This document shows positions 2,336-61,899 of a DNA stretch of 64,000 nucleotides, in pieces. Numbering within the stretch: position 1 is the stretch's first letter; each line of letters opens with the position of its first letter. A model generated the notes under the pieces. That model did not search any database and was not told where the DNA came from. It was given only the letters and a program-made list of their open reading frames with translations. Source of the DNA: a virus; IMG/VR virus record IMGVR_UViG_3300033475_000015, one strand, 5' to 3'. Both the position numbers and the translations under genes were made by a program.

Positions 2336-2641
2336 ATGGACACTGCCGAATCCAGCGCGTACACCGACTATCTCGGCTCGATGAACCCGGGTGGCTGGTA
2401 CGAGCGCCAGCCGGGTACGCACCCGGCCGACGGCTCGCAGGGCGTACCGGGTCTGGCCGCCCTTCCTGCGGAAGGAACGGCTGTGCGGCACGCCCGGTCG
2501 GGGGAGGGTGGTGTGGTCACGGGGTACGCGGCCAATGCCCACACGGGCGAGAGGCTGCCGACCGTGCGCTGGCAGGGCCAGCCCGCCGCTGGTTTCACCA
2601 GCGACCAGGGATACTCGCTCGATTCGCTCACCAACCCGTGA
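2336..2641 (+). CDS. Hypothetical protein, likely leaderless
   Basis: ORF; TACACT -10-like box 7 nt before ATG. Confidence 0.6.
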   Translation: MDTAESSAYTDYLGSMNPGGWYERQPGTHPADGSQGVPGLAALPAEGTAVRHARSGEGGVVTGYAANAHTGERLPTVRWQGQPAAGFTSDQGYSLDSLTNP

Positions 2642-2677
2642 CCGTGGCGGGGCCACGGTCGACGTCAGGAGTTCAAC

Positions 2678-2851
2678 ATGGTTGTGTTCTGCTATTGGGT
2701 CGCCGTGGTCAGCTTCTTCGTCGCCCTGGTGCTGTGCCTGGTCGCGCCCGCGCCGCAACCGCCCCGCTGGCACTGGGCGACGTTCGTGTGCTTGGGGCTG
2801 CTTGCCTGGGCCGTGGCGGTGGCGGCCAGCGCAAGCCACCTGGTATCGTAG
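2678..2851 (+). CDS. Small two-TM membrane protein (57 aa, below ORF-track cut-off)
   Basis: AGGAG RBS; MVVFCYWVAVVSFFVALVLCLV...WATFVCLGLLAWAVAVAAS. Confidence 0.65.
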   Translation: MVVFCYWVAVVSFFVALVLCLVAPAPQPPRWHWATFVCLGLLAWAVAVAASASHLVS

Positions 2852-3145
2852 CCACACATGCGGCAGGGACCGCCCTTGATGTGACAGCCAGACCGGGCGG
2901 GTGGGATTTGTCACCCAACCCGCTGCCGCCCTGGGCGGACCGAACCGAACGTACGGCGTAAGTAGGACGTCCAGGTTTTGAGGGCGACAGGCCGTGCGCT
3001 GGCCTAAGGTAGAGCGCCGTCGGATGAGATCCGCCGACGGTTGCCGGGAAGCCGCGCCCGGGGTAGGCCCCGGGTGAAGCCAGCGCGCGGCCTGCCGCAT
3101 ACTTGTCGGCTGCGCCGCCCTCGACCAGCGTGTTAACCTGGCGGC

Positions 3146-3379
3146 ATGACTATTGCCCACCCCTCTCCGCCTGAGCCGGGGCGTGTACCTACCTACCCGT
3201 GGGCCGAGTGGCTCAACGGCAGGGAATGGACGCTGACGCGGGGGCGCGACTACTGGGATGAAAACAAGATCATGGCCCGCCGGATCCGTGGCGCGGCCAA
3301 CAACCTGCGGATCCCGGTCGTCATCGACGACTCGGACTCCCGATTCCTGCGCGTGAAGGCGATGCCGCGTGGCGACTGA
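3146..3379 (+). CDS. Hypothetical protein (leaderless)
   Basis: TGTTAACCT extended -10 six nt before ATG; overlaps next gene. Confidence 0.7.
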   Translation: MTIAHPSPPEPGRVPTYPWAEWLNGREWTLTRGRDYWDENKIMARRIRGAANNLRIPVVIDDSDSRFLRVKAMPRGD

Positions 3380-3884
3380 TGACCCGGAGTTCAACCGGGC
3401 CGCCCTTGCCCGACGCGAGCGGGAGAAGGACGAGAACCGCCGTCTGACGCTGCAGGCCCTGGAGCTGCGCAAGAACGGCATGTCGTTCCGCGAGATCGCC
3501 GAGATCCAGCACTGCAACCCCCAGACCGCCGCCCGCCGGTATCGCAAGGGGTGCAAGCAGTACCTGCCGCAGGAGCTGGTGGAGTCGGCCCGAGCCACCG
3601 AGCTCGACCGGTTCGACGCCCTGACCCAGATCAACATCTCGTTGATCGCCGAGGCGTACAAGGCCCGCGACATCGACACGCTGCTGAAGCTCGAAGACCG
3701 CACGCTGGCGATCCACGACCGACGCAAGAAGTTGATCCCGATGGAGGTCCCGACCACCATCAAGCTGGACCAGACGATCGAGACGGTTACCGACCAGGAC
3801 AGGGAGCTGGCCGCGTTCCTGGACCAGCACGAGGCCGAGGTGGAAGCGGAGATCCGCCGGATCCGAGAGACTGCCGCGCCATGA
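3369..3884 (+). CDS. HTH protein, probable terminase small subunit
   Basis: ALELRKNGMSFREIAEIQHCNPQTAARRY HTH plus helical body; upstream of terL. Confidence 0.55.
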   Translation: MATDDPEFNRAALARREREKDENRRLTLQALELRKNGMSFREIAEIQHCNPQTAARRYRKGCKQYLPQELVESARATELDRFDALTQINISLIAEAYKARDIDTLLKLEDRTLAIHDRRKKLIPMEVPTTIKLDQTIETVTDQDRELAAFLDQHEAEVEAEIRRIRETAAP

Positions 3885-4336
3885 CCGCCTCCCGATTCGA
3901 CCGGTACTACGGTCCGGCCATCTTCGGTGCCTTTGACGGCGTGGTCACCGTGCTGGGCGCCGTGTTCAGTCTGACCCACGACAGACACGCGCTGATCCTG
4001 TCCGGCGTCGGCCTGGCCGCCTCGGGCGCCGTGTCGATGGGCGCGGGTGAGTACCTGTCCGACAGCGACGCCGGGCTGGGCGCCAGCGCCGTCATCGGCC
4101 TGACCACCGGAGCGGGCACGCTGCTGCCCGTCGTGCCGTACATGGCGGACATGCCGCTGGCCACCTTCACCTCGATCACGCTGTGCCTGTTCGTCGCCGT
4201 CGGGATCAGCTGGGTCAAGTCCCGGACCGACCGGGGCACAACGCTGTTGCGCGCCGCTGCCCAGACGCTGGGCATTCTCGGGTTGGCCACCGCGTTCATC
4301 CTGCTATGCGCGTGGGCAACCGGTGCGGTAGGGTGA
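3881..4336 (+). CDS. VIT1/CCC1-family membrane protein (short)
   Basis: AIFGAFDGVVT...GAVSMGAGEYLS signature; several TM helices. Confidence 0.75.
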   Translation: MTASRFDRYYGPAIFGAFDGVVTVLGAVFSLTHDRHALILSGVGLAASGAVSMGAGEYLSDSDAGLGASAVIGLTTGAGTLLPVVPYMADMPLATFTSITLCLFVAVGISWVKSRTDRGTTLLRAAAQTLGILGLATAFILLCAWATGAVG

Positions 4337-4340
4337 CCGG

Positions 4341-4629: not shown

Positions 4630-5034
4630 GTGCAACAGGCCAACCCGACAACTCCGGCGCATGCGGGGGCGGGGGTGGTGTCCCCGCTGTGGCGACGCGA
4701 CCCGGTACACGGCTGGGAGATGGTCGAGCATTCGCTCGCCAGCCCGTCCCCGACCGGAGAGGTCGCCTACTTCTTCGACGTCCTGTCGCCGCATACGCTG
4801 CCCGTCGATGCCGAGGACGGGCCGCCCATCACGTTCAACAGTCTGATCGGCCGGGCCGCCATGCACTACCTGATGGCCAGCGCCATGGGCCGCAGACTTG
4901 AGATCTCCGACGGCCCGTATCTTCAGGTCCTCGAAGACGATGGGGCCGTACCCCCGGGCTGGGTCGTGCTCAGGGCGGTCTTGTGGGCCGACGAATTTGA
5001 CCTCGTGGTGCCGACCGAGGAGGCGACGCTGTGA
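4630..5034 (+). CDS. Hypothetical protein
   Basis: ORF in tightly packed run. Confidence 0.6.
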   Translation: MQQANPTTPAHAGAGVVSPLWRRDPVHGWEMVEHSLASPSPTGEVAYFFDVLSPHTLPVDAEDGPPITFNSLIGRAAMHYLMASAMGRRLEISDGPYLQVLEDDGAVPPGWVVLRAVLWADEFDLVVPTEEATL

Positions 5035-5267
5035 CCGGCCGAGTGGTTACCGCTCCGGCCGCGCACCTGGTGGGCGTGCGGGCAGCTGACGGCGGTTTGC
5101 TGGTCGGGCACACCGCCTGCTCCGGCCCGTGGGTGTTCGTGCCCAACATGCCGGGACAGGACCACGCGCTGGCCATCGACATCGCTCAGGCGATCATCGC
5201 CCACCAGTGCCCGCCCGGCGAGGGCGACCACGGCCAGGAGGCTGAGCGGGCGGGGGTGGTGTCGTGA
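5031..5267 (+). CDS. Hypothetical protein
   Basis: GTGA-coupled to neighbours. Confidence 0.55.
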   Translation: MTGRVVTAPAAHLVGVRAADGGLLVGHTACSGPWVFVPNMPGQDHALAIDIAQAIIAHQCPPGEGDHGQEAERAGVVS

Positions 5268-7598: not shown

Positions 7599-7615
7599 GG
7601 GCAGGGGTGGTGTAG

Positions 7616-7808: not shown

Positions 7809-8330
7809 GTGACCGCGCTGGTTCCCGCCGCCGGGTGGATCGGACTGGTCAAGATCGATGGGTTCGTAGGAGAGGCCATCCGAATCGCCCAGTGGCTCAA
7901 CGGCGACGGATTCAAGGATTACGAACACGCGTTCGTCATGGTCGACGGCCAGACGCTGGTCGAGGCGGAGCCGGGTGGTGTCCGGACCGCTGTGCTGACC
8001 GAGTACCAGGGACGCGAGGTTCTGTGGATCCCGTGCCCGCCGCAATACGCCGCCGCCATGGTCTCGGCCGCCCTGGCGTACGTTAAGATCCCGTACTCGT
8101 ACACCGACTACGTGGCGATCGCCGCTCATCACCTCGACCTGGACCCGCTGCACCTGGCGCAGTTGGCCGTCAGTAAGTCCGGGCATGTGATCTGCAGCCA
8201 GATGGCTGCCGCGTGTGCGGCCAAGGCAGGCTGGCCGCTGATCCCGGACCACGAGTGGCCCGGCTACATCACCCCTGCGAAGCTCACCCGGTGGGCACCG
8301 AGCCCGCCGGTGCCCCAGCTGGTCGCATGA
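7809..8330 (+). CDS. Permuted papain-like (YiiX/NlpC-P60 superfamily) amidase or peptidase
   Basis: His motif (EHAFV...LVEAEPGGV) precedes PYSY and the catalytic CSQ motif, then ITP. Confidence 0.7.
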   Translation: MTALVPAAGWIGLVKIDGFVGEAIRIAQWLNGDGFKDYEHAFVMVDGQTLVEAEPGGVRTAVLTEYQGREVLWIPCPPQYAAAMVSAALAYVKIPYSYTDYVAIAAHHLDLDPLHLAQLAVSKSGHVICSQMAAACAAKAGWPLIPDHEWPGYITPAKLTRWAPSPPVPQLVA

Positions 8331-10066
8331 CAGCCACGCTGGACCAGCAGGCCACCGGAGATACCTCCGGTGGCCAGAACGGGGTATTCCCGACCCGCAT
8401 CATCTCCGCCTCGGAGTCGATCGGGTTCTTGGACGGCGAGACGTCCGAGACCTTCGACTGGAAGTCCTACGTCCGCAGCAGGGACAGGCGGTGGAAGGGC
8501 GAGAGCCTGTTGCACCCCAGCGGCAAAGCCAGCCGCGAGGTGATCCGCCAGTCGTCCCGCTTTCGTCGGCTGCAGACCCGGCGCGACCCGATGCTGTTTG
8601 CTCTGGTGTATCTGCGCGACCACCTGCGCTCCGAGGCTACCGGAGGCGAGATCACCATGTGCGACGCTCACATCGACTGGTGCAAGCAGGCCCTCGAATG
8701 GATCCGCCGATCCAGCCGACCACGTGAGAAGCGCGATGTCTACGTGGCCCCGCGTGAGCTGGGCAAGTCGACCTGGTTCTTTTTGATCCTGCCGCTGTGG
8801 GCCGCCGCCCACGGGCATCGCAAGTTCATCGCTGCCTTTGCCGACGCCGGTACACAGGCTGAGATGCACCTGCAGACATTCAAGAACGAGCTCGACACGA
8901 ACGCCCTGCTGCGCCGGGACTATCCCGACCTGTGCGAGCCCGCCGTCCGTGACCGTGGCATGACCCTGTCCGACACCAAGGGCCTGACCATCCGCAAGTC
9001 CGGATTCGTCTTCGGTGCCCGTGGCGCGGACTCGAAGACCCTCGGCATGAAGGTCGGGCACCAGCGGCCCGACATGCTCATCCTCGACGACATCGAGCCG
9101 GGCGAGGACCAGTACAGCGAGTACCAGGTCCAGGGCCGTCTGACCACGATCATCGACGTCATCTTTCCGCTGTCCGAGTACGCCCAGGTCGTGATCGCCG
9201 GAACAGTGACGTTGCCCGGCTCCATCATCCACCAGCTGGTCAAGTCTGTGACCGAGCCGGACGAGGAGCCCGCCGAGTGGATCCGCGAGCAGAATATGCG
9301 GGTGCACTACTACCCGCCGGTTATCGCGAACGACGACGGCACCGAGCGTTCGATCTGGCCCTCGAAGTGGCCCATCGAGTTCCTGCAGGCGATCCGCCAT
9401 ACCAGGTCGTTCCTTAAGAACTTCGCCAACAGCCCGCTCGGCCTGGACGGCGACTACTGGACCAAGGACGATTTCCAGTACGGTTCGCTGCCGCTGACCA
9501 CCAAGACCGTGCTGTCGATCGACCCGGCCATGAAGGACAAGAAGGCGACCGACTGGACGGGCCTGGCCGTGGTCGGCTGGATGCCGCCGCCGTCGCGCGA
9601 CCCGCGTGTCAAGGCCACCGACGCCGAGGACATCCAGTCCCGGATCCTCGGCAACTTCGGCATGTGTGAGGTCAAGTACGTCAGGGCCGTGAAGCTGATC
9701 GGCGAGAAGCTGCGGGCCGAGGTGCTGCGCATCCTGGAGATGTTCCCGGAGATCGGGCTGGTCCTGGTCGAGGTCAACCAGGGCGGTGAGCACTGGATCG
9801 ACATCCTGCACCACCTGCCGTGCAAGATCCAGCTGATCGAGCAGTCTGTCGACAAGCGCGTGCGGGCGGCCCAGCTGCTGGCGCACTACCAGCGCCAGCG
9901 GGTGCTGCACACCACCCGCCACGGGTCGGCCGAGGAGCAGATGGTCGGGTTCCCCAAGGCGCCGAACGACGACATGGTGGACGCCATCGGTTCGGCGGCG
10001 GTGCGCATGCTGCGACCGCCCAAGAAGGACTCCATGGGCGGCCGCAACATCGGGTCGTACGTCTAA
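8327..10066 (+). CDS. terL: Terminase large subunit
   Basis: Walker A APRELGKST, Walker B LILDD, nuclease SIDPA and DDMVDA. Confidence 0.92.
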   Translation: MTATLDQQATGDTSGGQNGVFPTRIISASESIGFLDGETSETFDWKSYVRSRDRRWKGESLLHPSGKASREVIRQSSRFRRLQTRRDPMLFALVYLRDHLRSEATGGEITMCDAHIDWCKQALEWIRRSSRPREKRDVYVAPRELGKSTWFFLILPLWAAAHGHRKFIAAFADAGTQAEMHLQTFKNELDTNALLRRDYPDLCEPAVRDRGMTLSDTKGLTIRKSGFVFGARGADSKTLGMKVGHQRPDMLILDDIEPGEDQYSEYQVQGRLTTIIDVIFPLSEYAQVVIAGTVTLPGSIIHQLVKSVTEPDEEPAEWIREQNMRVHYYPPVIANDDGTERSIWPSKWPIEFLQAIRHTRSFLKNFANSPLGLDGDYWTKDDFQYGSLPLTTKTVLSIDPAMKDKKATDWTGLAVVGWMPPPSRDPRVKATDAEDIQSRILGNFGMCEVKYVRAVKLIGEKLRAEVLRILEMFPEIGLVLVEVNQGGEHWIDILHHLPCKIQLIEQSVDKRVRAAQLLAHYQRQRVLHTTRHGSAEEQMVGFPKAPNDDMVDAIGSAAVRMLRPPKKDSMGGRNIGSYV

Positions 10067-10326
10067 GCTCGCTTGCGCCGTCGGTCGCCGGGGGCGGGGG
10101 TGGTGTAGCGGACGGTGTCGATCGTGTCTTTGAGGGCCCGGACCTGGCGCACGGTGTCCAGTTCGGTGTCGCCCCGGCCCAGTGCGCTCTCGATCAACCA
10201 GGTGATCTCGTCGGCGAGGCGGCCCGCGTCCTCCTGGGTCAGACTGATGACCATGCGGTCGTTGATCTTGCTGGCCACCGGGTGGCCCTGCGGGTGAATG
10301 AGCGTAAGGTTCTTGTCGTGGTCCAC
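10063..10326 (-). CDS. Hypothetical protein
   Basis: GTG after ACCGGAGGTC RBS and cassette promoter (10389-10403). Confidence 0.65.
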   Translation of the reverse strand: MDHDKNLTLIHPQGHPVASKINDRMVISLTQEDAGRLADEITWLIESALGRGDTELDTVRQVRALKDTIDTVRYTTPAPGDRRRKRA

Positions 10327-10430
10327 GTTGACCTCCGGTCGGCGGGGGCCGACCGGGTGGGCGGCCCCACAACCAGCCAAGCACACAGTTGACCCCGGGT
10401 CAAGGACCCGGGGTCTGGGGTGTTGCTGGG

Positions 10431-10805: not shown

Positions 10806-10834
10806 GACGACCTCCGGTGTTGAATGGGTTGATG

Positions 10835-11008: not shown

Positions 11009-11085
11009 CTCGACCTCCGGTGCTGCGGGCCGGACCTCCCGGCCCCGCAACACCCATTCAACCATCCTCTTGCCAACGTGTCAAG

Positions 11086-52039: not shown

Positions 52040-54499
52040 GTGCTCAACGCGGCGGTCGAGGCCCAGTGGCGCGAGCTGGCAGGCCAGGGGGCGTATGTTT
52101 TCCCCCTGCCCGAGGGTGGCAAGAACCCGGGGGAGCTGGGCATCAAGTGGAAGGAAGGCTGGATCAGCCGAGGGCGCAACCCCTGGCCCCAGCTGGTGTC
52201 CGTCCACTTCGAGGCGACGGGGTTGTGGCTGGCCACCGGCCAGGTGTCCAAGCGGGTTGTGCTGGACATCGACAAGCCCGAGGCGGGAGACTACTGGCGC
52301 GACAAGATCGGCGCTGACATCTTCGACAGGGCCCTGCGAGTGACCACTGGCAAGGGATACCACCTGCACTTCCGCATCCTGGCCGACGACGACCGGGTGT
52401 GGGACAGCCATTCGGACAACGAACTGGGGTACGACCTGAGAGGGGACGGGGGTGGTGTAGTAGTCCCGCCGTCCGTCCACCTGTCTGGGCGCCGGTACGA
52501 GTGGGCCGGGGGTGAGCTGCTGGACGTGCCCGAGGTGCTCCGCCACCCGACCAAGACCAACGTGTCGTCCCTGGAGCGCGCCCGAGAGAAGCGCAAGCCC
52601 GGGTCGACACTGGCGGGCCTGCTGTCCGACCCGCCGGAAGAGGGCGGTCGCAACAACTGGCTGACCCGGGTCGGCGGGCACCTGGCCAAGTTCTGGCCCG
52701 GCCCGATGGAGGACGGATACGCCGAGCTGATGCAGTACATTGGCGGGCGCCTCGACTCTCCGATGGACGAGGAGGAGATCGCCAAGACGGCCAAGTCGGT
52801 GTGGGCCAAGGAGAAGGACCACGCCGGGGCCGATCACTGGTCGGACGAATCAGGCCAGCTGGTCGGCCGGGATGGGAAGCTGTACACCCGGCGCAAGGGC
52901 GAGGATGGGAACTATTACGTCACCGAGTGGGCCGACTTCGATATCAAGGCCCGCCGCGTGATCCAGGAGGGCGAGGAGCGCGTCTTTTACGTCGACATCG
53001 AGACCTCGCACACCACCTACGCCAACGAGCCGCTGAGGGCCGAGGTGCTCGGCAGCATCAATAGGCTGAACGTCTGGACCGCCGCACACCACTGCTCCGT
53101 CATCGGCCACCCGGCGGACCTGTGCAAAATGGCCTACGGCACCCGGCTGATGCGCTACCTGTTGTCCCAGGAGCCGGACGCCAGCCAGACCGCATTCTTC
53201 TACGGCCAGCAGGAGGACGGCACCTTCCTGACCCCGGACGGGCTGCTGGAGGGGGGTGGTGTCACGCCGTACCGGGGCACCATCCCCGCTGCTCACCTGC
53301 CTGGATGGGTCAACTACAGGTACGGCACCTGCCCGACCGACGAGGCGGTCGGCGTGTTGCGTGAGGTGATGACCTTCCAGGAGGAGACTGCCGCCTCGGT
53401 ATTCGGAGCCTGGTGGGCGATGGCCCTTCTCAAGGGACGCTACCAGTCCTCGCTGTTCCCGTTCATGCTGCTGGAGGCGGGCTCCGAGTCTGGCAAGACC
53501 ACCGGGTTTTTCGCGATGATGGTGGCGCTGGCCGGGTCCCTGGACGGCGCGGGGCAGAACACGCTGGCCGGGTTCCGTGACTCGGTGGCCGCCCACCGCA
53601 ACGGCGTTGCCTGGCTGGACGACATGACCGAGATGTCGGCGGGTCAGGTGATCGACATCATCCGTCAGGCGACATCCGAGGGATCGCGGGGAAAGAAGGG
53701 CGGGGACAACAAGACCACCGAGCGGGTCACCCTGCTGTCCCCGATCTTGGTGTCCGGCGAGGGCTCTGGGTCGATGATGTCCGAGAAGGCCATGTCGGAC
53801 CGATCGGTCCAACTGAGGTTCGGCAGTCCCAAGGGCCGCCGGTCCCTGCACGACCCCGACCGCCCACAGTGGGACGACATCCTGGCGCTGGAGGCCCGCT
53901 ACGGTGGCCGCACGGCGGGCCTCACGGCGGTCTCCGGGACGCTCGTGGCACAGATCCTGGCCAGGGCCCCCCTGCTGGACCAGATGGCCTCTCTGCGGCC
54001 GGACGCGGGCCGTGTGGCGGACAAGTGGGCGATTCTGCGGATGGGTGCCCGGGTACTGGATGACCTGCTGGGCGGACAAGATCACGCTATTCGGGTCGAC
54101 AAGTGGGTCTCCGAGCAGGTAGACAACGGGGCGGCCAACCTCGCCATCAACGAGATCATTCCATGGGCGCTGCGCAACACGGGGGGCGGTGTGGCCGAGT
54201 CCCCTCTTGGCTGGCAGCCCGCCTACTTCAACCCCCGCACCAAGACGGTCTGGATCTCGATTCCCCGCCTGGCCGACCGCTGGCTGGATCGTAACCACAT
54301 CACGGCCCGTGAGCGTCAGCTGGGGTCCGAGGACGCGATCCGAACCGAGCTCAAGGCTATCGGGGCCGAGACTTCCGGAAAGGTCCGAGAGGTGGACCAC
54401 AAGGACGGCAAGGCGGTGGGCCGCCGATACGTAGAGGTCCCGGCCGAATGGACCGCCCGGCTGCTGGCGGCGGCCGGGGCGGAGGTCCCCGAGGACTAA
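52040..54499 (+). CDS. Bifunctional primase-polymerase with PriCT and helicase-like domain
   Basis: VVLDID, GYHLHF, DLRGDGGGVVVPPS, GGRNNWLT, Walker A GSESGKTT. Confidence 0.85.
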   Translation: MLNAAVEAQWRELAGQGAYVFPLPEGGKNPGELGIKWKEGWISRGRNPWPQLVSVHFEATGLWLATGQVSKRVVLDIDKPEAGDYWRDKIGADIFDRALRVTTGKGYHLHFRILADDDRVWDSHSDNELGYDLRGDGGGVVVPPSVHLSGRRYEWAGGELLDVPEVLRHPTKTNVSSLERAREKRKPGSTLAGLLSDPPEEGGRNNWLTRVGGHLAKFWPGPMEDGYAELMQYIGGRLDSPMDEEEIAKTAKSVWAKEKDHAGADHWSDESGQLVGRDGKLYTRRKGEDGNYYVTEWADFDIKARRVIQEGEERVFYVDIETSHTTYANEPLRAEVLGSINRLNVWTAAHHCSVIGHPADLCKMAYGTRLMRYLLSQEPDASQTAFFYGQQEDGTFLTPDGLLEGGGVTPYRGTIPAAHLPGWVNYRYGTCPTDEAVGVLREVMTFQEETAASVFGAWWAMALLKGRYQSSLFPFMLLEAGSESGKTTGFFAMMVALAGSLDGAGQNTLAGFRDSVAAHRNGVAWLDDMTEMSAGQVIDIIRQATSEGSRGKKGGDNKTTERVTLLSPILVSGEGSGSMMSEKAMSDRSVQLRFGSPKGRRSLHDPDRPQWDDILALEARYGGRTAGLTAVSGTLVAQILARAPLLDQMASLRPDAGRVADKWAILRMGARVLDDLLGGQDHAIRVDKWVSEQVDNGAANLAINEIIPWALRNTGGGVAESPLGWQPAYFNPRTKTVWISIPRLADRWLDRNHITARERQLGSEDAIRTELKAIGAETSGKVREVDHKDGKAVGRRYVEVPAEWTARLLAAAGAEVPED

Positions 54500-54820: not shown

Positions 54821-55330
54821 ATGACAAGATCCGACATGTTCGAAGACGCAGTGCAGCATGAGACAGAGATCCGCTGGCACGACGACCCCGCCCGGTACCC
54901 GTACCTGCGCCAGCAGATCATGGGGCACACCTCCCGGTCCCGGGTGATCGGAGCGGGTGACCGCTGGTCGCTGGGCAAGCGCATCGTGGGCTACGCCGTA
55001 CTGGGTCCCAAGTCCCCTCCGGGACGGTTCGATCGTCGAATATTCTGGTGCAAGATGGTCGATCGGGACGGCAGTCGGGAGGACCCACCCTACAACGAGG
55101 CGGTGGATCCCCGGCTGATCCGGGCGGGGGTGGTGTGCCCATGGCTGTTCGGCTACTCCGTGCCTCTGGAGGACTGCGCCAGTTGGCTGGCTGCTCGCCG
55201 CAAGGAGATGGGGCTGGCCGAGGGGGAGCGGGCCGCTGCCGCCCCACCGAAGCGGGTACCCCCCATGACCAGGCAATCTTCGGTTTCACCCGGCGTTGCT
55301 CGATTGACAAGCCAACGCGGGGCACGGTAG
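54821..55330 (+). CDS. DUF6009-like protein
   Basis: EIRWHDDPARYPYLRQ...VGYAVL...FDRRIFW; leaderless TAGACT. Confidence 0.6.
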   Translation: MTRSDMFEDAVQHETEIRWHDDPARYPYLRQQIMGHTSRSRVIGAGDRWSLGKRIVGYAVLGPKSPPGRFDRRIFWCKMVDRDGSREDPPYNEAVDPRLIRAGVVCPWLFGYSVPLEDCASWLAARRKEMGLAEGERAAAAPPKRVPPMTRQSSVSPGVARLTSQRGAR

Positions 55331-55539: not shown

Positions 55540-55742
55540 GGCCGAGCGAGCTGAACGACCGTCGGTTATCGCCTCTTAAGCGGGTGGTTGCGGGTTCAAG
55601 TCCCGCCGAAGGCAGTACGACCGTGAGCCGGTGAACGGACGTTACGACGATCCGACCCGGGCAACCTCACGGCTCCACCTCCCTCGTAGCTCAATTGGCA
55701 GAGCACCTAAACACCGGCAGTCACCAACTCGCTCGCTCGGCC
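55540..55742 (+). ncRNA. Y RNA-like 3 (YrlA-type) with permuted tRNA module and 66-nt insert
   Basis: 12-bp terminal stem; anticodon loop CTCTTAA, T arm GCGGG-TTCAAGT-CCCGC, then D arm GCTC-AATTGGCA-GAGC. Confidence 0.8.
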
Positions 55743-55996: not shown

Positions 55997-57691
55997 ATGA
56001 GCAACGCTTTGTCTCGCCACGGCCAGACACACTCGACCCCCCAGACGTCCCCGATCCCGGGCCGCGAGCCCGACATGGTCCAGAACGCGGCGGGCGGCTA
56101 CGCCTTCGCCAAGGACCTGTTCGAGCGACTCCAGGACTTCCTGATCCTGGGCACCGAGGGCAACACCTACTACGCCGACGAGAAGTCCCGCACCCTGCAG
56201 AACGTGCAGGTGGTGCACGACGCGATCCGGGCCGACGGTCTGCGGGCTGTCAAGCTGGCCGTCGAGATCTCCACGGCCCGTCCGGCCCGTGCCGTCAAGA
56301 ACTTCCCGGCCCTGTACACGATCGCCGCTGCGCTGTGCTCGGACGACCTGGCCACCCGCCAGGCGGCGGCGGGCTCGACCCACCTGGTCGCCCGAACCAC
56401 CGACCATCAGGCCCACCTGTTCGGCTACGTCAAGTCGATGAAGGGCAAGCCCGGCGGGCGCAACGGCCGGTCCCCGTCTGTCGGCGGTCCCGTGTTCAAG
56501 CGTGCCTGGACCAACCTGTTCGTCCAGGACCGGGCCGACGCCGTGGCGTACCGGTACCTCAAGGCCCGGTCCCGCAAGACCGGTGACGGCGAGCCCTTCT
56601 CTCCGCGCGACCTGCTGCGCATCGCCAAGCCCGTCCCGAACAGCGAGGTCCAGAGCACCCTGTTCGGCCTGATCTCTGGCAAGGTCAGCCCCATGGAGGC
56701 GAGTGGTGCGCTGGCCTCGTGCAAGTCGTTCTATGAGGCTCAGCTGGCCGACACCCCGGCCAAGGCGGTCCGGGCGATCAACGCCTACCACGTCCCGTGG
56801 GAGTTCCTGCCCACCGAGGTCCTGAAGCACCCGGAGGTCTGGGAGGCCCTGGTCCCGCACCTGGGCATGACGGCCCTGATCCGCAACCTGTCGCGGATGA
56901 CCCAGATCGGAACCCTCGGCCCCTTCAAGCGGGCCAACCGCCGGGTGGCCCAGCGGCTGACCGACCAGGCCGAGCTGCACGCGGCCCGGATCCACCCGTT
57001 CGACCTGCTGCTGGCCCTGAAGGTCTACGAGTCCGGCGCGGCCCAGCCGAATCTTAAGGCACCGGTCCGCACCTGGGACCCGGTGCCCGAGATCGTCACC
57101 GCCTTGAACGAGGCCTACGTCAAGTCCTTTGCGGTCTGCGACAAGATCCCCGGCAACCTGCTGGTGGCCGTCGACAGCTCGGGCTCGATGCAGGGCACGA
57201 ACGTCCAGCACGGCGGGTCAAATCTGGGGTCGGCCTATCGCATGGCCCTGGCGTTCGGCCAGATCCTGATGCGCACCTGGGGCGGCCAGGTCCACATGGT
57301 CGACTTCGACCAGGAGCTGCGCCGCAGCCCGCTGCGGGCCGACATGACCCTGTCCGAGATCAACCGTCTGCACAACGGCCGGGGCTGGGGTACCGACGCC
57401 TCGGTCGTGATGCGCTGGGCCACCCAGCACCGCCACTTCGTCGACGGGTTCGTCCTGATCACGGACAACGAGTCGTGGGCCGGGGACCGCCACGCCAGCC
57501 AGGCCCTGACCGAGTACCGCCGTACGGTCAACCCCAACGCCCGCGTGATCTGGGCGGCCACAGTCCCGAATGGCTACAGCCTCGGCGACCCGACCGACCC
57601 CGGCATGCTGAACGTCCAGGGGTTCGACAGCAACCTGGCCACCCTGGTCTCCTCGTTCATCGGGCCCGCCGTGCGGGCGCCGATGGGGTAG
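55997..57691 (+). CDS. rsr: Ro60-related TROVE-domain RNA-binding protein with vWA domain
   Basis: QNAAGGYAF, FLILGTEGNTYY, MTALIRNLSRM, RIHPF, VAVDSSGSM, GTD, ITDNE, DPGMLNVQGFD. Confidence 0.93.
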   Translation: MSNALSRHGQTHSTPQTSPIPGREPDMVQNAAGGYAFAKDLFERLQDFLILGTEGNTYYADEKSRTLQNVQVVHDAIRADGLRAVKLAVEISTARPARAVKNFPALYTIAAALCSDDLATRQAAAGSTHLVARTTDHQAHLFGYVKSMKGKPGGRNGRSPSVGGPVFKRAWTNLFVQDRADAVAYRYLKARSRKTGDGEPFSPRDLLRIAKPVPNSEVQSTLFGLISGKVSPMEASGALASCKSFYEAQLADTPAKAVRAINAYHVPWEFLPTEVLKHPEVWEALVPHLGMTALIRNLSRMTQIGTLGPFKRANRRVAQRLTDQAELHAARIHPFDLLLALKVYESGAAQPNLKAPVRTWDPVPEIVTALNEAYVKSFAVCDKIPGNLLVAVDSSGSMQGTNVQHGGSNLGSAYRMALAFGQILMRTWGGQVHMVDFDQELRRSPLRADMTLSEINRLHNGRGWGTDASVVMRWATQHRHFVDGFVLITDNESWAGDRHASQALTEYRRTVNPNARVIWAATVPNGYSLGDPTDPGMLNVQGFDSNLATLVSSFIGPAVRAPMG

Positions 57692-57814
57692 CGCTCACCG
57701 CCCCGACTCTCGGCCCCTCCGGTTCCGCCTCCCGGAGGGGCCGAGGCGTACCCGGGGCGGGGGGTGGTGTGGGGCTGGCCGGGGGCAACATCGGCCTTGG
57801 GTTGACTCAGTCCC

Positions 57815-57850: not shown

Positions 57851-59839
57851 ATGACGACGATCAAGACATGGCACCAGGCCGAGGCCCGGCTGGCCGAGGT
57901 GATGCCCGGATTCCGGTCCCGGCCCCAGCAGCAGGAGCTGGGTCAGCGGGTGGCACAGGCGGTCTCCGGCAACTCCGCCCACCCGGTCCTGATGTCTCAG
58001 GCCGGGTGCGGCGTGGGCAAGTCCCTGGGCTACCTCATCCCGGCGATCGCTGGCGGCGGGCGCACCATCGTTGCTGTCAGCACCAAGGCCCTGCAGGACC
58101 AGCTGATGGGCAAGGACCTGCCGATGCTGCACGACACCCTGTTCCCCGCGCTGACCTTCGCGTCCCTGAAGGGACGATCCAACTACGTGTGCCAGCGGGC
58201 GGCCGACAAGAACAACCTGACCGCCGCAGTCACCCCCGGCTCGGCCGGTGAGCGACAGGACCTGCTGCGCCCGGTCGACGACAAGACCTGGTCCGAGATC
58301 AGCGTCGACGCCGAGGGCTGCGTGGGCAAGGGCTGCCCGTTCCGCTCGGAGTGCCACTCCGAGCGCGCCCGACAGAAGGCCCTGAATGCCCGAGTGGTCG
58401 TGGTCAACACCAGCCTGCTGACCCAGGACCTGCGTCTTCGGGGCATGACCAAGGGCAACGCGTCCCTGCTTGGCGACTTCGACTTCCTCGTGGTCGACGA
58501 GGCCCATGAGATGCCCGACATCGTCTCGGGCGGCCTGTCCACCCGGGTCAGTCTGCGCCGGATCGTGGACTGCGCCAGCAAGCTGACCTACCACCTGTCG
58601 GCGGACAAGTCCGCTGCCTGGGTGAGCGAACTGGTGGACGAGGCGACCGCCTACTTCGACGGCTGCTCGGCCTGGTTCAAGTCCCAGGACGAGCGCACCC
58701 GCACCGCTGAGCTGGCCGAGGAGGACTTCGCCACCCTGGCCCGGCTGTGCACCCTGCTGGACCCGCTGCACAAGGCCACTCAGGACGCCGACTGCTCGTG
58801 CGAGCCGGGCGAGTCCCCCGACGGCGAGATCGTCGAGGGCTGCGAGTTCGCCCGCCGTATCGCCTCTCTGGCCACCGACCTCGAACTGTTCGCCCGGTCC
58901 GAGGGCTCGATCAACGTGGTCTGGATGGAGCGCACCCGCGCGGGCCAGGTTGCCCTGATGTCCAGCCCGGCCGAGGTCGGCGGATTCCTGGACTCGACCC
59001 TGTGGCACCCGAACTGGCGCAAGCCGGAGCGGGGGGAGGGTGGTGTGCCAGTCACCCGGGCGGCTCTGACCAGCGCCACTCTCGCCGTCGGCGGGGACTT
59101 CACCTACCTCGCCCGGCGCCTGGGCCTGAAGAACTACGACTCGATGGACGTCGGCACCCCCTTCGACTTCGAGCGGCAGGCCCGGACGTACCTGGCCTCG
59201 GCCGACGCCCCGAACCCCTCGAAGGAGTACGGGCGCTGGAAGATGTGGGCCCAGCGCGAGACCACCGCCCTGGTCAACTCGGCTGGCGGGGGCGCCCTGC
59301 TGCTGTTCACCTCGACCGCCGCCATGCGCGAGTCCTATGACGCCCTGCGCCAGCGGTTCGCCAACAGGGGCTGGCACTCCAAGATGCAGGGTGACGGCCT
59401 GACCAACCGGGAACTGTCCGACTGGTTCCAGCGCGACACCCATGGAGTGCTGTTCGCGACCCGCTCGTTCATGACCGGTGTCGACTTCGCTGGGGACACC
59501 TGCCGCCTGGTGGTCTTGGACAAGATGCCGTTCCCCGTGCCCGACGAGCCCGTATTCAAGGCCCGGTGTGCCGCCGTCGACGCCAGGTTCGGCGAGCGCA
59601 GCAGCTTCGGCCGGGTCTCGGTCCCCGAGATGTCGCTCGTGCTGATCCAGGCCTACGGCCGTCTGATCCGCACCGTGGACGACACGGGCGTGGTCGCCAT
59701 CCTCGACCCGCGCATGCGCGCCGGATGGGCCGCCCCGATCCGCAGGAGCCTGCCCCCGGCGCCCGTCGTGGGCTCTTCCGACGACGTGGCGGCCTTCTAC
59801 GGGACGCTGGCGCTCCGAACGTCCGGGAGGGCCGCGTGA
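57851..59839 (+). CDS. dinG: DinG/YoaA-family Fe-S helicase
   Basis: Q motif RPQQ, QAGCGVGKSLGY, four Cys, VVDEAH, TSATL, LLLFTS, GVDF, DKMPF, LIQAYGRLIR. Confidence 0.92.
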   Translation: MTTIKTWHQAEARLAEVMPGFRSRPQQQELGQRVAQAVSGNSAHPVLMSQAGCGVGKSLGYLIPAIAGGGRTIVAVSTKALQDQLMGKDLPMLHDTLFPALTFASLKGRSNYVCQRAADKNNLTAAVTPGSAGERQDLLRPVDDKTWSEISVDAEGCVGKGCPFRSECHSERARQKALNARVVVVNTSLLTQDLRLRGMTKGNASLLGDFDFLVVDEAHEMPDIVSGGLSTRVSLRRIVDCASKLTYHLSADKSAAWVSELVDEATAYFDGCSAWFKSQDERTRTAELAEEDFATLARLCTLLDPLHKATQDADCSCEPGESPDGEIVEGCEFARRIASLATDLELFARSEGSINVVWMERTRAGQVALMSSPAEVGGFLDSTLWHPNWRKPERGEGGVPVTRAALTSATLAVGGDFTYLARRLGLKNYDSMDVGTPFDFERQARTYLASADAPNPSKEYGRWKMWAQRETTALVNSAGGGALLLFTSTAAMRESYDALRQRFANRGWHSKMQGDGLTNRELSDWFQRDTHGVLFATRSFMTGVDFAGDTCRLVVLDKMPFPVPDEPVFKARCAAVDARFGERSSFGRVSVPEMSLVLIQAYGRLIRTVDDTGVVAILDPRMRAGWAAPIRRSLPPAPVVGSSDDVAAFYGTLALRTSGRAA

Positions 59840-59967: not shown

Positions 59968-59999
59968 AAGTCGGCCGACCGGCCGGGAAGGAGCACCGA

Positions 60000-60482
60000 A
60001 TGACCACCGCACGGGAGCTGGCCAGGCTCGAACCCCCGCCCCCCATCGACTACGCGTACGCCACCCGGCGCCGGACCCTGGCCAACCTGATCGCCGACGA
60101 CCTGGGGTACCGCATCGTCTCGGGTCAGTACGGCGAGGGCGAGGTCCTGGACCTGCCCGGTCTCGAACGCCAGTTCGCCGTCTCGCGCAACTCCATGCGC
60201 GAGTGTCTGATCGCGTTGACCAGCAAGGGTCTGATCCTGAGCACCCCCAACACGGGCACGGTGGTCCGGCCCCCGTCCCACTGGCACCTGCTCGACGCCG
60301 ACGTGGTCCGCTGGATGCAGCTGTCCAACACCCTGACCGAGTCCGGCCGCGACTTCCTGCAATTCCTTGACACCGACCCGTGGGTGACCGAGTCCCTGGC
60401 CGGTGGCAACATGTTGGTGGTTCACCTGGTCCGGCTGCTCAAGGGCCTGACGGGACAGGGGGTGGTGTCGGGTGTCGAGTGA
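60000..60482 (+). CDS. GntR/FadR-family regulator (wHTH, truncated effector domain)
   Basis: RIVSGQY...LERQFAVSRNSMRECL...KGLI...GTVVRPPSHWHLLD. Confidence 0.85.
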   Translation: MTTARELARLEPPPPIDYAYATRRRTLANLIADDLGYRIVSGQYGEGEVLDLPGLERQFAVSRNSMRECLIALTSKGLILSTPNTGTVVRPPSHWHLLDADVVRWMQLSNTLTESGRDFLQFLDTDPWVTESLAGGNMLVVHLVRLLKGLTGQGVVSGVE

Positions 60483-60765
60483 GCTTCCGACCGTCTGCAC
60501 GTCCGGCCTGCTGGTGCTGTGGGCCCGGCACGGACAGGACCGCCCCGTGCTGGCCGAGTCGGTCGAGGTCTTCGGCCGCCCGATGGTGATCGTCCACCGC
60601 ATGATGAGCGATCAGGCCAAGGTGATCGAGTCCTGTGTCGACGGCTGGCTCGACATGGAGTACGACGCCGACCGCCGCCGACTGACCCTGAATCCGACCG
60701 ACAAGGGCCGAGACTGGCTGGTCGGCTGGCACGCCCGCCGGGGGGTGCACTCTCCGTGGTCCTGA
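60472..60765 (+). CDS. Hypothetical protein
   Basis: Overlapping ORF in run. Confidence 0.55.
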   Translation: MSSELPTVCTSGLLVLWARHGQDRPVLAESVEVFGRPMVIVHRMMSDQAKVIESCVDGWLDMEYDADRRRLTLNPTDKGRDWLVGWHARRGVHSPWS

Positions 60766-60929
60766 CCGTCGGTGCCCTGGGCGTGGTCATGATGGGCTGC
60801 GGCCTGCTGATGGTGCTTCGCGGCACCGACGACAAACTGATCGAACACCCCGTCCTGTTGCTGGCTGGCGAGCTGGTCGGGTTCCTCGCCGTGATTGCGG
60901 GCGGCGTGGTGGCCGTCCGCTCTGCCTGA
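60759..60929 (+). CDS. Small two-TM membrane protein
   Basis: VVLTVGALGVVMMGCGLLMVL...LLLAGELVGFLAVIAGGVVAV. Confidence 0.5.
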   Translation, partial: VLTVGALGVVMMGCGLLMVLRGTDDKLIEHPVLLLAGELVGFLAVIAGGVVAVRSA

Positions 60930-60940
60930 AAGGAATTGGT

Positions 60941-61594
60941 ATGCCCGTTACCGCAAGGGACGTCCTGGGTCCAAAGGACCTGAATTCCAGGTACTTCGAC
61001 TGCCTGCTGCACCTGCCGCGCGAGCCGTACACCGTGCTGACCCTGCGTGACGCCAACTGGTCTCACCGGGGCCGCTGGCACCTGTCTGGCTCGATGCACG
61101 GCCTGGCCGAGGACAGATTCGATCTGGCCATGTCGGACGGCTGCCAGATTCTGTACCAGGACGGATCGCGCGAGTCGGTCGACTTCTACCTGGTCAAGGG
61201 CAACCCGATCTATCAGGTCACCGAGGTGCACGGCCGGTTCGGCGTATTCATCAAGGGCGTGCCCCGGTACCCCAGGGGCAAGTCGGAGGAGCGGCAGGCC
61301 GGGGTGGAGGTCACCACCCGCCTGGTGCCCGAACTCCACCAGCTGCTGACCAAGTACCTTGGCGAGATCGACATGCAGCGCCGTACCTGGCTGGTCGAGC
61401 AGCTGCAGGCCCTGCGCGACCGGGAGGTGGCCGCCAGCTCCGCCCGCCTGGCTCGCCAGTGCGCCGACACCCTCGACCGCCTGAACGACCTGAAGATCCG
61501 GGTCGGCGAGGCCGTCCAGGACTGGCACGAGGGCGACGCCCACGACGAGGTGTTCGACCGCATCCAGAAGCTGCTCCACGCCGACGGATCCTGA
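60941..61594 (+). CDS. Hypothetical protein
   Basis: AAAGGA RBS. Confidence 0.7.
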   Translation: MPVTARDVLGPKDLNSRYFDCLLHLPREPYTVLTLRDANWSHRGRWHLSGSMHGLAEDRFDLAMSDGCQILYQDGSRESVDFYLVKGNPIYQVTEVHGRFGVFIKGVPRYPRGKSEERQAGVEVTTRLVPELHQLLTKYLGEIDMQRRTWLVEQLQALRDREVAASSARLARQCADTLDRLNDLKIRVGEAVQDWHEGDAHDEVFDRIQKLLHADGS

Positions 61595-61683
61595 CTCATC
61601 AGGACCCTGACGCCAAGGCTATCACCCGGCCCAACCCGGGTGATAGCCTGTCCTTTACACCCCCATTACCGAAAGGCAACCTC

Positions 61684-61899
61684 ATGCGCGAGTTCTGCGC
61701 CTTTGTCAGTATGCTGTTCGCGGCCGTCTGCGGGGCGGCCCTCGTCGTCGGCTGGAAGCTGCAGGACTGGCACGCCGCTGTCGTTCTGGTCGAGTGCGCG
61801 GCCGTGATGGTCGGAGGGGCGGGGGTGGTGTGGGGCGCCCTGTGGGGAGCTTGCGCTTTGGGCCGACGGGCCATTCTTGCCCGTCGCGCAAGCCGTTAG
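61684..61899 (+). CDS. Small membrane protein
   Basis: MREFCAFVSMLFAAV...; GAAAGG RBS. Confidence 0.55.
   Translation: MREFCAFVSMLFAAVCGAALVVGWKLQDWHAAVVLVECAAVMVGGAGVVWGALWGACALGRRAILARRASR

Follow-up and report, generated by a model that had tools for sequence, protein, structure and literature searches.

A polar G-rich word recurring about every 2 kb in an actinobacterial phage genome is most likely a replication signal

Why does an actinobacterial phage genome carry a 15-base G-rich word, GGGnGGGGGTGGTGT, at intervals of about 2 kb on one strand, irrespective of gene direction? The window analysed here is the whole 64,000-nucleotide stretch of viral DNA. A first-pass annotation, made from its letters, had read the word as a DNA-level signal and offered as explanations priming sites for the phage prim-pol, Chi-like or KOPS-like sites, protein-coating sites, and G-quadruplex-prone sites handled by the phage DinG. 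Its interpretation is partly supported by the analysis described below. The word is most likely an undescribed replication signal, because related words mark cultured relatives with the same PurZ/prim-pol replication genes.

Results

The core of the motif, GGGTGGTGT, has 39 matches in the window, compared with 1.42 ± 1.18 (largest 4) in dinucleotide shuffles. Specifically, 31 matches are on the + strand and eight on the − strand, with about one expected per strand. The first-pass annotation had given about 31 + and 5 − copies against about 0.4 expected per strand; its + count and its view of the motif as polar and far above chance hold. The 12-mer CGGGGGTGGTGT occurs 17:0 (+:−; expected 0.03), and the extended 15-mer GGGNGGGGGTGGTGT occurs 15:0 exactly, 27:4 with up to one mismatch and 35:8 with up to two. 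Enrichment is about 30-fold for the 8–15-base word and hundreds-fold for longer words, with a polarity of about 4–7:1. Most + copies of the core have a G-rich 5' extension, as do about four of the eight − copies (Table 1). The motif is a linear word, around which no conserved flanks were found; the base 3' of it is A, G or C. Fork direction receives no independent support from GC skew.

Table 1. Motif copies and replication/recombination genes of the window
Feature	Position	Strand	Remarks
Motif copy	2500–2514	+	core GGGTGGTGT at 2506; + gene, frame 2
Motif copy	4667–4681	+	exact 15-mer; gene junction
Motif copy	5248–5262	+	exact 15-mer; final codons of gene 5031–5267, just upstream of start 5264
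Motif copy	7599–7613	+	intergenic; start 7616 lies 2 nt downstream
Motif copy	7967–7981	+	weak 5' extension; + gene; non-motif sequence here in relatives
Motif copy	10092–10106	+	exact 15-mer; within minus-strand gene 10063–10326 (TTPAP)
Motif copy	12065–12079	+	exact 15-mer; intergenic, minus-strand gene block
Motif copy	15043–15057	+	intergenic, minus-strand gene block
Motif copy	15628–15642	+	exact 15-mer; intergenic, minus-strand gene block
Motif copy	16755–16769	+	within minus-strand ORF 16543–17157 (TTPVP)
Motif copy	19902–19916	+	exact 15-mer; + gene, frame 2
Motif copy	21722–21736	+	exact 15-mer; + gene, frame 2
Motif copy	24317–24331	+	exact 15-mer; + gene; copy at matching place in G1 and G2
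Motif copy	25951–25965	+	intergenic, after capsid gene; no copy there in G1, G2, G6
Motif copy	28609–28623	+	intergenic; kept in G1 and G2; inverted pair with − copy 28580–28588
Motif copy	32708–32722	+	tape-measure gene, frame 1
Motif copy	34086–34100	+	tape-measure gene, frame 2
Motif copy	35514–35528	+	exact 15-mer; intergenic, 4 nt upstream of ATG 35533; core also in motif-poor G6
Motif copy	40438–40452	+	exact 15-mer; intergenic, convergent junction
Motif copy	40724–40738	+	exact 15-mer; within minus-strand gene 40527–40757 (TTPAP)
Motif copy	44143–44157	+	intergenic, divergent junction
Motif copy	46576–46590	+	exact 15-mer; intergenic
Motif copy	48042–48056	+	exact 15-mer; + gene, frame 1
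Motif copy	51030–51044	+	Sak4-like gene; common to G2; 6 nt missing here in G1
Motif copy	52444–52458	+	prim-pol gene, conserved GDGGGVV block; common to G2; shifted G-rich near-copy in G1
Motif copy	53248–53262	+	prim-pol gene; common to G1 and G2
Motif copy	55122–55136	+	exact 15-mer; 1.5-kb non-coding stretch preceding Ro60 gene
Motif copy	57756–57770	+	intergenic
Motif copy	59032–59046	+	DinG-like gene; insertion compared with G1 (core 59038)
Motif copy	60454–60468	+	close to 3' end of GntR-like gene
Motif copy	61817–61831	+	exact 15-mer; intergenic
Motif copy	16964–16978	−	G-rich extension present
Motif copy	28580–28594	−	partial extension; intergenic; inverted partner of 28609–28623
Motif copy	30834–30848	−	G-rich extension present
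Motif copy	44749–44763	−	G-rich extension present
PD-(D/E)XK (RecB-like) exonuclease	49237–50124	+	also in G1, G2, Hiyaa, Araceli; absent in G4, G6
Sak4-like (RecA-fold) annealing protein	50471–51397	+	
SSB-like protein (DUF669)	51463–51921	+	
Prim-pol, PriCT-1 helix bundle and C-terminal helicase-like region	52040–54499	+	proposed motif reader
DinG-like helicase	57851–59839	+	
Family A DNA polymerase (DpoZ-like)	62307–64000	+	extends beyond window

The enrichment persists under a codon-aware null, a check that the annotation had proposed. Synonymous-codon shuffles that keep all protein sequences and the codon usage of each gene predict 2.2 ± 1.2 in-gene + copies (maximum 7 in 300 shuffles), and 17 are observed. 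For in-gene − copies, 7 are observed against 3.0 ± 1.4; those lacking the extension fit codon-level chance (ACC-ACC, Thr-Thr). Non-coding DNA makes up 13.7% of the window and, together with gene junctions, holds 14 of the 31 + sites (45%). As the annotation had noted, the motif stays on the + strand in minus-strand genes (cores at 10098, 16761 and 40730, read as TTPAP or TTPVP), the ratio in minus-strand gene blocks being 6:1, and its frame differs among plus-strand genes (frames 1 and 2, read GGVV and GVV, never frame 0). Because the motif survives the codon-aware null, is enriched in non-coding DNA and keeps its strand in minus-strand gene blocks, the data support a signal at the level of the DNA itself rather than an artefact of codons or transcription.

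The copies are also evenly spaced. The coefficient of variation (CV) of spacing in the window is 0.52–0.59, compared with 0.95 for random placement (P = 0.0004 at CV 0.54). The window and G1 together span 0.52–0.60 and G2 spans 0.56–0.71, where randomly placed copies would give about 0.95 (P values from <0.0001 to 0.03).

Two complete relatives carry the motif with the same polarity round the whole genome (24:6 and 32:11), and the flip in polarity that the annotation had suggested looking for occurs nowhere in them. Synonymous shuffling again leaves an excess of in-gene + copies (17 against 2.5 expected in G1, 21 against 2.9 in G2), and certain in-gene copies are insertions, for example core 59038 compared with G1. 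The structural relatives G6 (capsid 89% and portal 81% identical) and G4 have 0–1 copies, and both lack the genes for the RecB-like nuclease, Sak4, SSB-like protein, prim-pol(-helicase), DinG, PolA and PurZ. The prim-pol of the window matches PF09250 (E 1.4e-16) and PF08708 (E 6e-10), namely Prim-Pol plus PriCT_1, and also phrog_5177.

Polar GTGG-based words also occur in cultured phages that share the 2-aminoadenine (PurZ)/prim-pol module and come from four further host genera. Specifically, Wayne has GGGTGGCG at 22:3 (in-gene 21 against 2.7 after synonymous shuffling), Olihed GTGGCGGG at 17:0 (16 against 3.9) and Goodman GGTGGCG at 34:10 (32 against 13). In Hiyaa, GGGGTGGCG is enriched on both strands (17:10; 11 against 1.7), and the signal is weak in Ghobes and Araceli. 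In Olihed minus-strand gene blocks, GGGTGGCG keeps its strand (4:1). The extension varies by lineage, being a 5' G run in the window clade and a 3' GGG in Olihed. Similar words span hosts from three orders, whereas module-free phages of the same hosts are flat (Kumotta 1:2, Bowser 4:6, among only four such controls). The link is not one-to-one, because the motif is missing from some phages that have PurZ and a related prim-pol: no such word was found on the contigs of L216 and L217 (prim-pol 56–58% identical), L242, L243, L247 or L248, and PurZ is found on four of the contigs behind these six loci. The comparison with related phages, also foreseen in the annotation, thus supports a motif whose presence goes with the prim-pol/PurZ replication module and not with the structural genes or the host.

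In an Actinocrinis MAG and three Streptomyces genomes, GGGTGGTGT occurs once per 45–90 kb. By strand, GGGTGGCG is found 83:82 in 400 kb of G060 and GGGTGG[CT]G 22:23 in 200 kb of G039. Across the actinobacterial chromosomes sampled, polarity is absent and enrichment is slight or nil (O/E 1.0–1.55; counts 83:82 and 15:13), and long forms are 15–45 times rarer per base in them than in the phages.

Discussion

The main rival to a priming site is a Chi-like signal, which we consider unlikely. It would be read by a DNA-end-processing machine, either the phage RecB-like nuclease with a helicase and Sak4 or the host AdnAB/RecBCD, and would halt degradation of linear or rolling-circle DNA entered at the right-hand end and switch the machine to recombinase loading. 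Escherichia coli Chi is GCTGGTGG, which has the letters TGGTG/GGTGG in common with the motif. Chi words are polar, over-represented 5–8-mers on the strand matching the main replication direction, a pattern like that of the motif, and the Wayne 8-mer, polar, frequent and free of conserved flanks, behaves much as Chi does. The module always comes with a PD-(D/E)XK nuclease, a Sak4 recombinase and an SSB-like protein, and with the terminase at the left the motif would be oriented as active Chi is in lambda. Orientation cannot separate the rivals, because the motif-bearing strand of every lineage is the one that carries most of the genes and on which a Chi-like site would be expected. Chi, however, is host-chromosomal and read by RecBCD/AddAB, whereas the motif follows a phage module, is missing from same-host phages without that module, recurs in similar form across three host orders and is unskewed in sampled chromosomes. 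Against a phage-encoded version, the helicases are not the same across lineages (DinG-like in the window and Hiyaa, others in Wayne, Ghobes and Olihed), and recognition of a Chi-like site by an enzyme of phage origin is not known; nor, to our knowledge, is even spacing a property of Chi. The FtsK and SpoIIIE guides KOPS and SRS are likewise G-rich polar 8-mers, but no FtsK-like gene was found in the window, G1 or G2. Thus, the sampled chromosomes lend no support to the host Chi or KOPS site of the first-pass annotation.

Improbable, in our view, are stoperator-like or coating sites on double-stranded DNA, at which a phage protein with a regulatory or architectural role would act in one orientation and might block rightward read-through or organise DNA for packaging. 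The stoperators of cluster A mycobacteriophages are asymmetric 13–14-bp sites in about 25–35 copies in coding and non-coding DNA, and the motif (15 bp, about 30 copies, asymmetric) is similarly distributed, with 45% of sites intergenic in a window that encodes GntR-like and LuxR-like HTH proteins. Stoperators, however, are transcription-oriented and paired with a repressor in temperate phages, whereas the motif is independent of gene direction and the window yielded neither an integrase nor a repressor. Moreover, relatives of both HTH proteins occur in G4 and G6, which are motif-free, but not in G1 and G2, which bear the motif; no single candidate binder outside the replication module is common to all motif-bearing lineages, and 21 of the 22 Wayne copies lie within genes.

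Two further explanations are very improbable. In T5 and phiKMV-like phages, single-strand interruptions occur in just one strand, at a consensus sequence, and strand-specific sites for a phage nickase would likewise give a polar, dispersed motif. No nickase common to the motif-bearing lineages was identified, and the known features of such nicks give no account of the link to the PurZ/prim-pol module. Slightly less probable still is a structure-forming element, namely a G-quadruplex or a non-template-strand R-loop seed, handled by the DinG-like helicase of the window and perhaps serving transcription-primed replication. By inspection, the window-clade 15-mer could form a two-tetrad quadruplex (GG-gc-GG-g-GG-t-GG). 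However, G tracts are too few in the variants of Wayne, Goodman and Olihed, these phages have other helicases with no match to the DinG-like helicase of Hiyaa and the window, and copies in minus-strand gene blocks would not be in the sense transcript. Since quadruplex formation is not possible for the variants of Wayne and Olihed, where other helicases are present, the DinG explanation is unlikely as a general function.

Prim-pol priming sites are the best supported of the explanations first offered, because every variant contains GTGG, a published recognition word of helix-bundle (PriCT-1) prim-pols (PMC8718748, PMC5862659). The helix bundle of pRN1 ORF904, identified as PriCT-1, recognises 5'-GTG-3', and RepB' of RSF1010 also carries a PriCT-1 domain (PMC5862659). 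For the prim-pol of phage NrS-1, the best sites are 5'-GTGG-3' and 5'-GTGA-3', and primer synthesis begins one base 5' of them (PMC8718748). Both enzymes have the architecture of the window prim-pol (Prim-Pol domain, PriCT-1, helicase-like C-terminus) and similarly read one strand. Their sites (for NrS-1 also 5'-TTTGGTTA-3') are defined in vitro and comprise 3–4 bases, in one case 8, whereas the motif has 8–15 bases and is enriched, polar and regularly spaced. We found no description in the literature searched of sites of this type as enriched, polar or evenly spaced genome-wide.

Other priming systems offer partial parallels. The T7 gene 4 primase uses 5'-GGGTC-3', 5'-TGGTC-3' and 5'-GTGTC-3' and makes the primers ACCC, ACCA and ACAC. 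These are also short G/T-rich words of the lagging-strand template, and the motif contains GGGT, TGGT and GTGT; however, the T7 enzyme belongs to the DnaG/TOPRIM family, not to the AEPs, and needs a cryptic C that is not conserved after the motif. ssiA and ssiB of RSF1010 (RepB') and the G4-type and phiX-type ssi are likewise strand-specific single-stranded priming signals, but they are one or two origin hairpins, in contrast to a linear word repeated about every 2 kb.

Given that PriCT-1 prim-pols recognise GTG/GTGG, we tentatively favour, at a probability of about 0.42, the motif copies as strong prim-pol recognition and initiation sites on the lagging-strand template. Reading of 8–15 bases by a prim-pol would be an extrapolation from published sites of 3–4 bases, and the patchy association and the two-stranded enrichment in Hiyaa also count against this reading. 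In a prim-pol mechanism, each copy would be recognised on single-stranded DNA by the phage prim-pol-helicase, with the PriCT-1 helix bundle binding the GTGG(T/C)G part and primer synthesis starting at the base immediately 5' of it. In the window lineage, the G run GGGnGGGG would be copied into a short C-rich primer, which may pair tightly without needing A or 2-aminoadenine; this idea fits the window clade only, because the extension differs by lineage. Since nearly all copies are on the + strand, that strand would be the lagging-strand template over the whole genome. Replication forks would accordingly move the way the structural genes point, as in rolling-circle replication, and Okazaki fragments would start at the evenly spaced copies, about 2 kb apart.

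A strand-locked G-rich motif selected at the DNA level

The core word GGGTGGTGT occurs 39 times in the window, against 1.4 copies expected from dinucleotide shuffles. The copies are distributed 31:8 between the + and - strands (ratios hereinafter are + copies : - copies), in agreement with the strand-locked G-rich word described in the first-pass annotation. The real motif unit is longer than this core. In a logo of 97 + copies from the window phage and three relatives, information extends from position -6 to +9, with the consensus GGG-n-GGGGGTGGTGT-(A/G). Specifically, the 12-mer CGGGGGTGGTGT is found 17:0 in the window (0.03 expected), while the 15-mer GGGNGGGGGTGGTGT is found 15:0 as an exact match and 27:4 when one mismatch is allowed. 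None of the 31 + copies of the window is directly followed by T.

The enrichment persists under the codon-aware null proposed in the same annotation. Synonymous codons were shuffled inside each gene, with protein sequences and per-gene codon usage kept; 17 in-gene + copies are present versus 2.2 ± 1.2 expected, and 7 in-gene - copies versus 3.0 ± 1.4. Thus, selection acts on the + copies at the DNA level; the - copies are for the most part close to chance. Intergenic or gene-junction positions account for 14 of the 31 + copies, with non-coding DNA making up 13.7% of the window. Spacing is more even than chance, with a coefficient of variation of 0.54 versus 0.95 for random placement (P = 0.0004) and a largest gap of 4.9 kb, where ~8 kb is expected.

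The genes of the window are mostly on the + strand, with two - blocks at 10063-17157 and 40527-44066. The motif occupies frames 1 and 2 in + genes. As the annotation had noted, it reads TTPAP/TTPVP in - genes, and its polarity is independent of transcription; the ratio inside the - blocks is 6:1. Stoperators orient with transcription, whereas the motif stays on the + strand in these blocks. Some copies lie 2-12 nt ahead of start codons (5254, 7605, 35520). A Shine-Dalgarno function was rejected as a general role, since GGTGG pairs poorly with the anti-Shine-Dalgarno sequence and copies are found in the - blocks. Another polar pair of words, AGGCCAAG / AAGGCCAA (17:3), was rejected as a signal because it looks like Lys-Ala-Lys coding bias.

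At 28580-28623, in the intergenic region after gene 28312-28536, a - and a + core copy form an inverted repeat with 9-bp arms and a 26-nt loop. This pair, the + copy of which is kept in the two relatives G1 and G2 described below, could represent a hairpin of the terminator type or a special site.

Relatives with and without the motif

IMG/VR contains many relatives of the window phage. Two complete genomes, G1 (77,296 bp) and G2 (77,480 bp), carry the motif at 24:6 and 32:11, respectively, and the polarity flip that the first-pass annotation had proposed looking for is not seen around either genome. In-gene + copies again exceed the codon-aware null (17 versus 2.5 in G1; 21 versus 2.9 in G2), and spacing is even, as in the window. 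The DNA identity of G1 and G2 to the window is only 65-80%. Sites 24323, 28615, and 53254 are shared by all three genomes, and sites 35520, 51036, and 52450 by the window and G2; the others are lineage-specific. Insertions into genes account for some sites, for example 59038 (DinG-like gene) and 51036 (6 nt). Site number and spacing are thus maintained while single sites turn over.

Two structural relatives have 0-1 copies of the motif. G6, binned in an Actinocrinis metagenome-assembled genome (MAG), is a 65-kb contig with a capsid 89% and a portal 81% identical to those of the window. G4 (IMGVR_UViG_3300025913_000030) is a complete 74.7-kb genome with a capsid 82% identical. Both are without the nuclease, Sak4, SSB-like protein, prim-pol, DinG-like helicase, and PolA, all six of which are present in G1 and G2. 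The top polar word of G4, GACGCTCGC, was rejected as a dispersed motif; it belongs to a 24-bp tandem repeat (GGCGGTGACGCTCGCGCTGCCCGA-like) that fills both contig ends (1-270 and 74500-74704).

G1 and G2 also encode PurZ, 47% and 44% identical to gp49 of Arthrobacter phage Wayne, respectively, together with a dUTPase-like gene and a polymerase. PurZ and the dUTPase-like gene adjoin the DpoZ-like polymerase in G1 (28823-29755) and G2 (63687-64859), and both genes are absent from G4 and G6. This distribution suggests that the window phage and its clade, which come from soil metagenomes, probably have Z-genomes, that is, 2-aminoadenine DNA. The window phage's own PurZ would lie beyond the window end.

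Gene content of the window

The phage is siphovirus-like, with 67% G+C, and the 64-kb window spans most of its ~77-kb genome. Stoperators go with a cognate repressor in temperate phages; the window proteins scanned, a set outside which many small ORFs fall, include neither an integrase nor a repressor. A PDB sequence search with the prim-pol gave no direct match.

Annotated features of the window
Feature	Coordinates	Strand	Remarks
tRNA-Met (CAT)	1084-1159		In a 1-kb non-coding stretch
tRNA-Ile (TAT)	1568-1642		In the same 1-kb stretch
Large terminase	8327-10066
SPP1-type portal	17288-18919
HK97-fold capsid	24882-25928
Tape measure	31486-34275
Conserved unknown protein	41193-42056	-	Common to G1, G2, G6
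Group 1 glycosyltransferase	42053-43075	-	Common to G1, G2, G6
NAD-dependent epimerase/dehydratase	43068-44066	-	Common to G1, G2, G6
PD-(D/E)XK nuclease	49237-50124		Replication/recombination block
Sak4-like protein	50471-51397		Replication/recombination block
SSB-like protein	51463-51921		Replication/recombination block
Prim-pol with PriCT-1 domain	52040-54499		Replication/recombination block; Pfam PF09250 Prim-Pol, E 1.4e-16; PF08708 PriCT_1, E 6e-10
Ro60/TROVE protein	55997-57691		Replication/recombination block; TROVE and Ro60 vWA domains, E 1.7e-17 and 4.8e-34
DinG-like helicase	57851-59839		Replication/recombination block
Family A polymerase	62307-64000		Replication/recombination block; window stops inside gene

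The first - block, between terminase and portal, holds ~15 small genes almost without relatives in G1, G2, G4, and G6, an unusual location for a variable gene block. In the 1.5-kb non-coding stretch upstream of the Ro60 gene there is a weak match to the Y RNA-like YrlA (55582-55710; 29.6 bits, E 6.5e-4, under the gathering score). The two could form a phage-borne Ro60 / Y-RNA pair. The Ro60 gene is present too in G1, G2, and motif-free G4.

Related words in cultured phages

The replication module of the window is shared with Streptomyces phage Hiyaa (24-50% protein identity) and, by annotation, with Arthrobacter phage Wayne, Gordonia phage Ghobes, Microbacterium phage Goodman, and Micrococcus phage Olihed. 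These phages carry PurZ, the marker of 2-aminoadenine genomes, and words related to the motif are found in their genomes, mostly skewed to one strand.

Polar words in cultured phages carrying the module
Phage	Word	+ : - copies	In-gene + copies	Shuffle expectation
Wayne	GGGTGGCG	22:3	21	2.7 ± 1.4
Olihed	GTGGCGGG	17:0	16	3.9
Olihed	GGGTGGCG	14:5	13	5.1
Goodman	GGTGGCG	34:10	32	13.0
Hiyaa	GGGGTGGCG	17:10	11	1.7
Ghobes	GGGTGGCG	9:2	9	4.4 (weak)

Polarity is retained in the - blocks of Olihed (4:1), and the Hiyaa word is enriched on both strands. The flanks of the Wayne word are not conserved. A G-quadruplex or R-loop element is a less likely reading of the motif; with too few G tracts in the Wayne-type 8-mer, the G-quadruplex cannot serve as the general explanation. 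Same-host phages without the module, one per host, are at expectation: Kumotta (Arthrobacter sp. ATCC 21022) has 1:2 and Bowser (Gordonia terrae 3612) 4:6. In the Acinetobacter PurZ phage JeffCo, the module proteins of the window are all missing, and no clear G-rich polar word is seen.

In Ghobes, GACGCGG (33:2) was rejected as a motif variant, since 26 of its 33 + copies encode Asp-Ala in frame 0, a partly codon-level effect. Of this word, ~10 copies are expected per strand; it is found 5:0 inside the - replication block, and the - strand has 2 copies versus 8.7 expected. Streptomyces phage Araceli, which has a prim-pol and no annotated PurZ, shows the motif only weakly; it also carries the near-palindromic CGTGTAAACG / CGTTTACACG (14 + 10 copies versus 0.16 expected), probably an operator or promoter element.

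An alignment query of IMG/VR gave 38 prim-pol loci for examination (a single-protein query found only 2). Loci with a prim-pol 69-72% identical to that of the window have a T variant of the word. A C variant is found at many loci with a prim-pol 33-49% identical, including Hiyaa itself, the Arthrobacter AK-type genomes, and L220, L232, L234, and L244. No comparable word was found at L216/L217 (56% identity), L242, L243, L247, or L248, which join Ghobes and Araceli as cases where the motif is weak or absent despite a prim-pol. PurZ is present in four of the five motif-lacking prim-pol contigs tested, the fifth being a 29%-complete fragment, and in all five carriers tested. In total, 4 module-free genomes lack the motif and 7 module-bearing lineages carry it. 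The association of motif and module is not one-to-one: in this sample the module appears necessary, a word that four module-free controls ground only weakly, and appears not to be sufficient.

Host chromosomes

Chi-like or KOPS-like sites were among the functions suggested in the first-pass annotation. In the Actinocrinis MAG and three Streptomyces genomes with related prophages, the density of GGGTGGTGT is one copy per 45-90 kb, similar to that of its reversed-word control, and GGGGGTGGCG behaves similarly in candidate-host chromosomes. Counts of GGGTGGCG in 81 genomes of the class mostly reach 1.2-1.6 times, and at most 2.4 times, those of its reversed control; this set includes five genomes flagged as unpublished (G015, G038, G040, G044, and G051), on which no claim rests individually. 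Strand counts of GGGTGGCG are even, 83:82 in 400 kb of G060, where the word is densest (O/E 1.55), and 15:13 in 200 kb of G039 (O/E 1.0). An apparent complete skew of GGGTGG[CT]G to one strand of two chromosomes proved to be a listing-order artefact, direct counts being 22:23 (200 kb of G039) and 83:82. Because densities are near control and strand counts even in these candidate, rather than true-host, chromosomes, the host Chi or KOPS reading is unsupported. KOPS/SRS was rejected on a further ground, namely that nothing in the window, G1, or G2 matches the FtsK-like gp102 of Hiyaa.

A Chi-like signal, read by a host or phage machine, would follow the same strand logic as the prim-pol sites considered below. 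We regard it as less likely than these, though as their main rival; for the host version, the sampled chromosomes are unskewed and the word is not shared by the same-host, module-free Kumotta and Bowser.

Possible recognition of the motif by the prim-pol

Every motif variant contains GTGG, namely GGGTGGTGT in the window, GGGTGGCG in Wayne, GTGGCGGG in Olihed, GGTGGCG in Goodman, and GGGGGTGGCG in Hiyaa (GTG/GTGG), although GTG is common and this is a weak test. In the pRN1 prim-pol, template 5'-GTG-3' is recognised by a helical subdomain (cited in PMC8718748) that has been identified as PriCT-1 (PMC5862659). The prim-pol of phage NrS-1, which has the same domain layout as that of the window (Prim-Pol + PriCT_1), works best on 5'-GTGG-3' and 5'-GTGA-3' and begins primer synthesis on the base immediately 5' of the site (PMC8718748). 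By analogy with these enzymes, the motif copies may act as strong sites for the prim-pol on the lagging-strand template, a reading to which we assign a probability of roughly 0.4. Forks would then run in the + direction throughout the genome. In this clade, priming on the G run 5' of GTGG would give a C-rich primer free of A and Z; the idea does not transfer to Olihed because its extension is 3'.

A double-strand binding site for a protein and strand-specific nicks at the motif are both less likely than recognition by the prim-pol.

No published description emerged from full-text searches on the motif strings or on PurZ/DpoZ combined with motif terms; the only phage hit, in P. acnes phages, matches a promoter or ribosome-site string by coincidence. 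As an observation, the motif appears to be new, while its best reading makes it, as a mechanism, a known type of signal in an unusual form that spans the genome. More broadly, though we hold this as doubtful, a group of actinophages with 2-aminoadenine (PurZ/DpoZ) might have written a one-strand, genome-wide punctuation into their DNA. It would be read by a phage-encoded machine for replication or recombination, as Okazaki starts or as a phage-owned Chi-like signal, its word evolving by lineage (GGGNGGGGGTGGTGT, GGGTGGCG, GTGGCGGG) and its even spacing kept by synonymous codons and small insertions.

Related words in easily handled cultured phages (Wayne, Olihed, Goodman, and Hiyaa) make these readings testable. 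As an annotation marker, the motif would flag the replication module and the strand polarity of metagenomic contigs. If Chi-like, it would be the first such signal known to us that is owned by a phage module and not by a host chromosome. Should the copies prove to be priming sites, lagging-strand initiation would be visibly programmed genome-wide, to our knowledge for the first time, and replication direction, perhaps also Okazaki fragment size, could be read from sequence alone. If true, it would help to explain how replication is organised in phages in which 2-aminoadenine replaces adenine.
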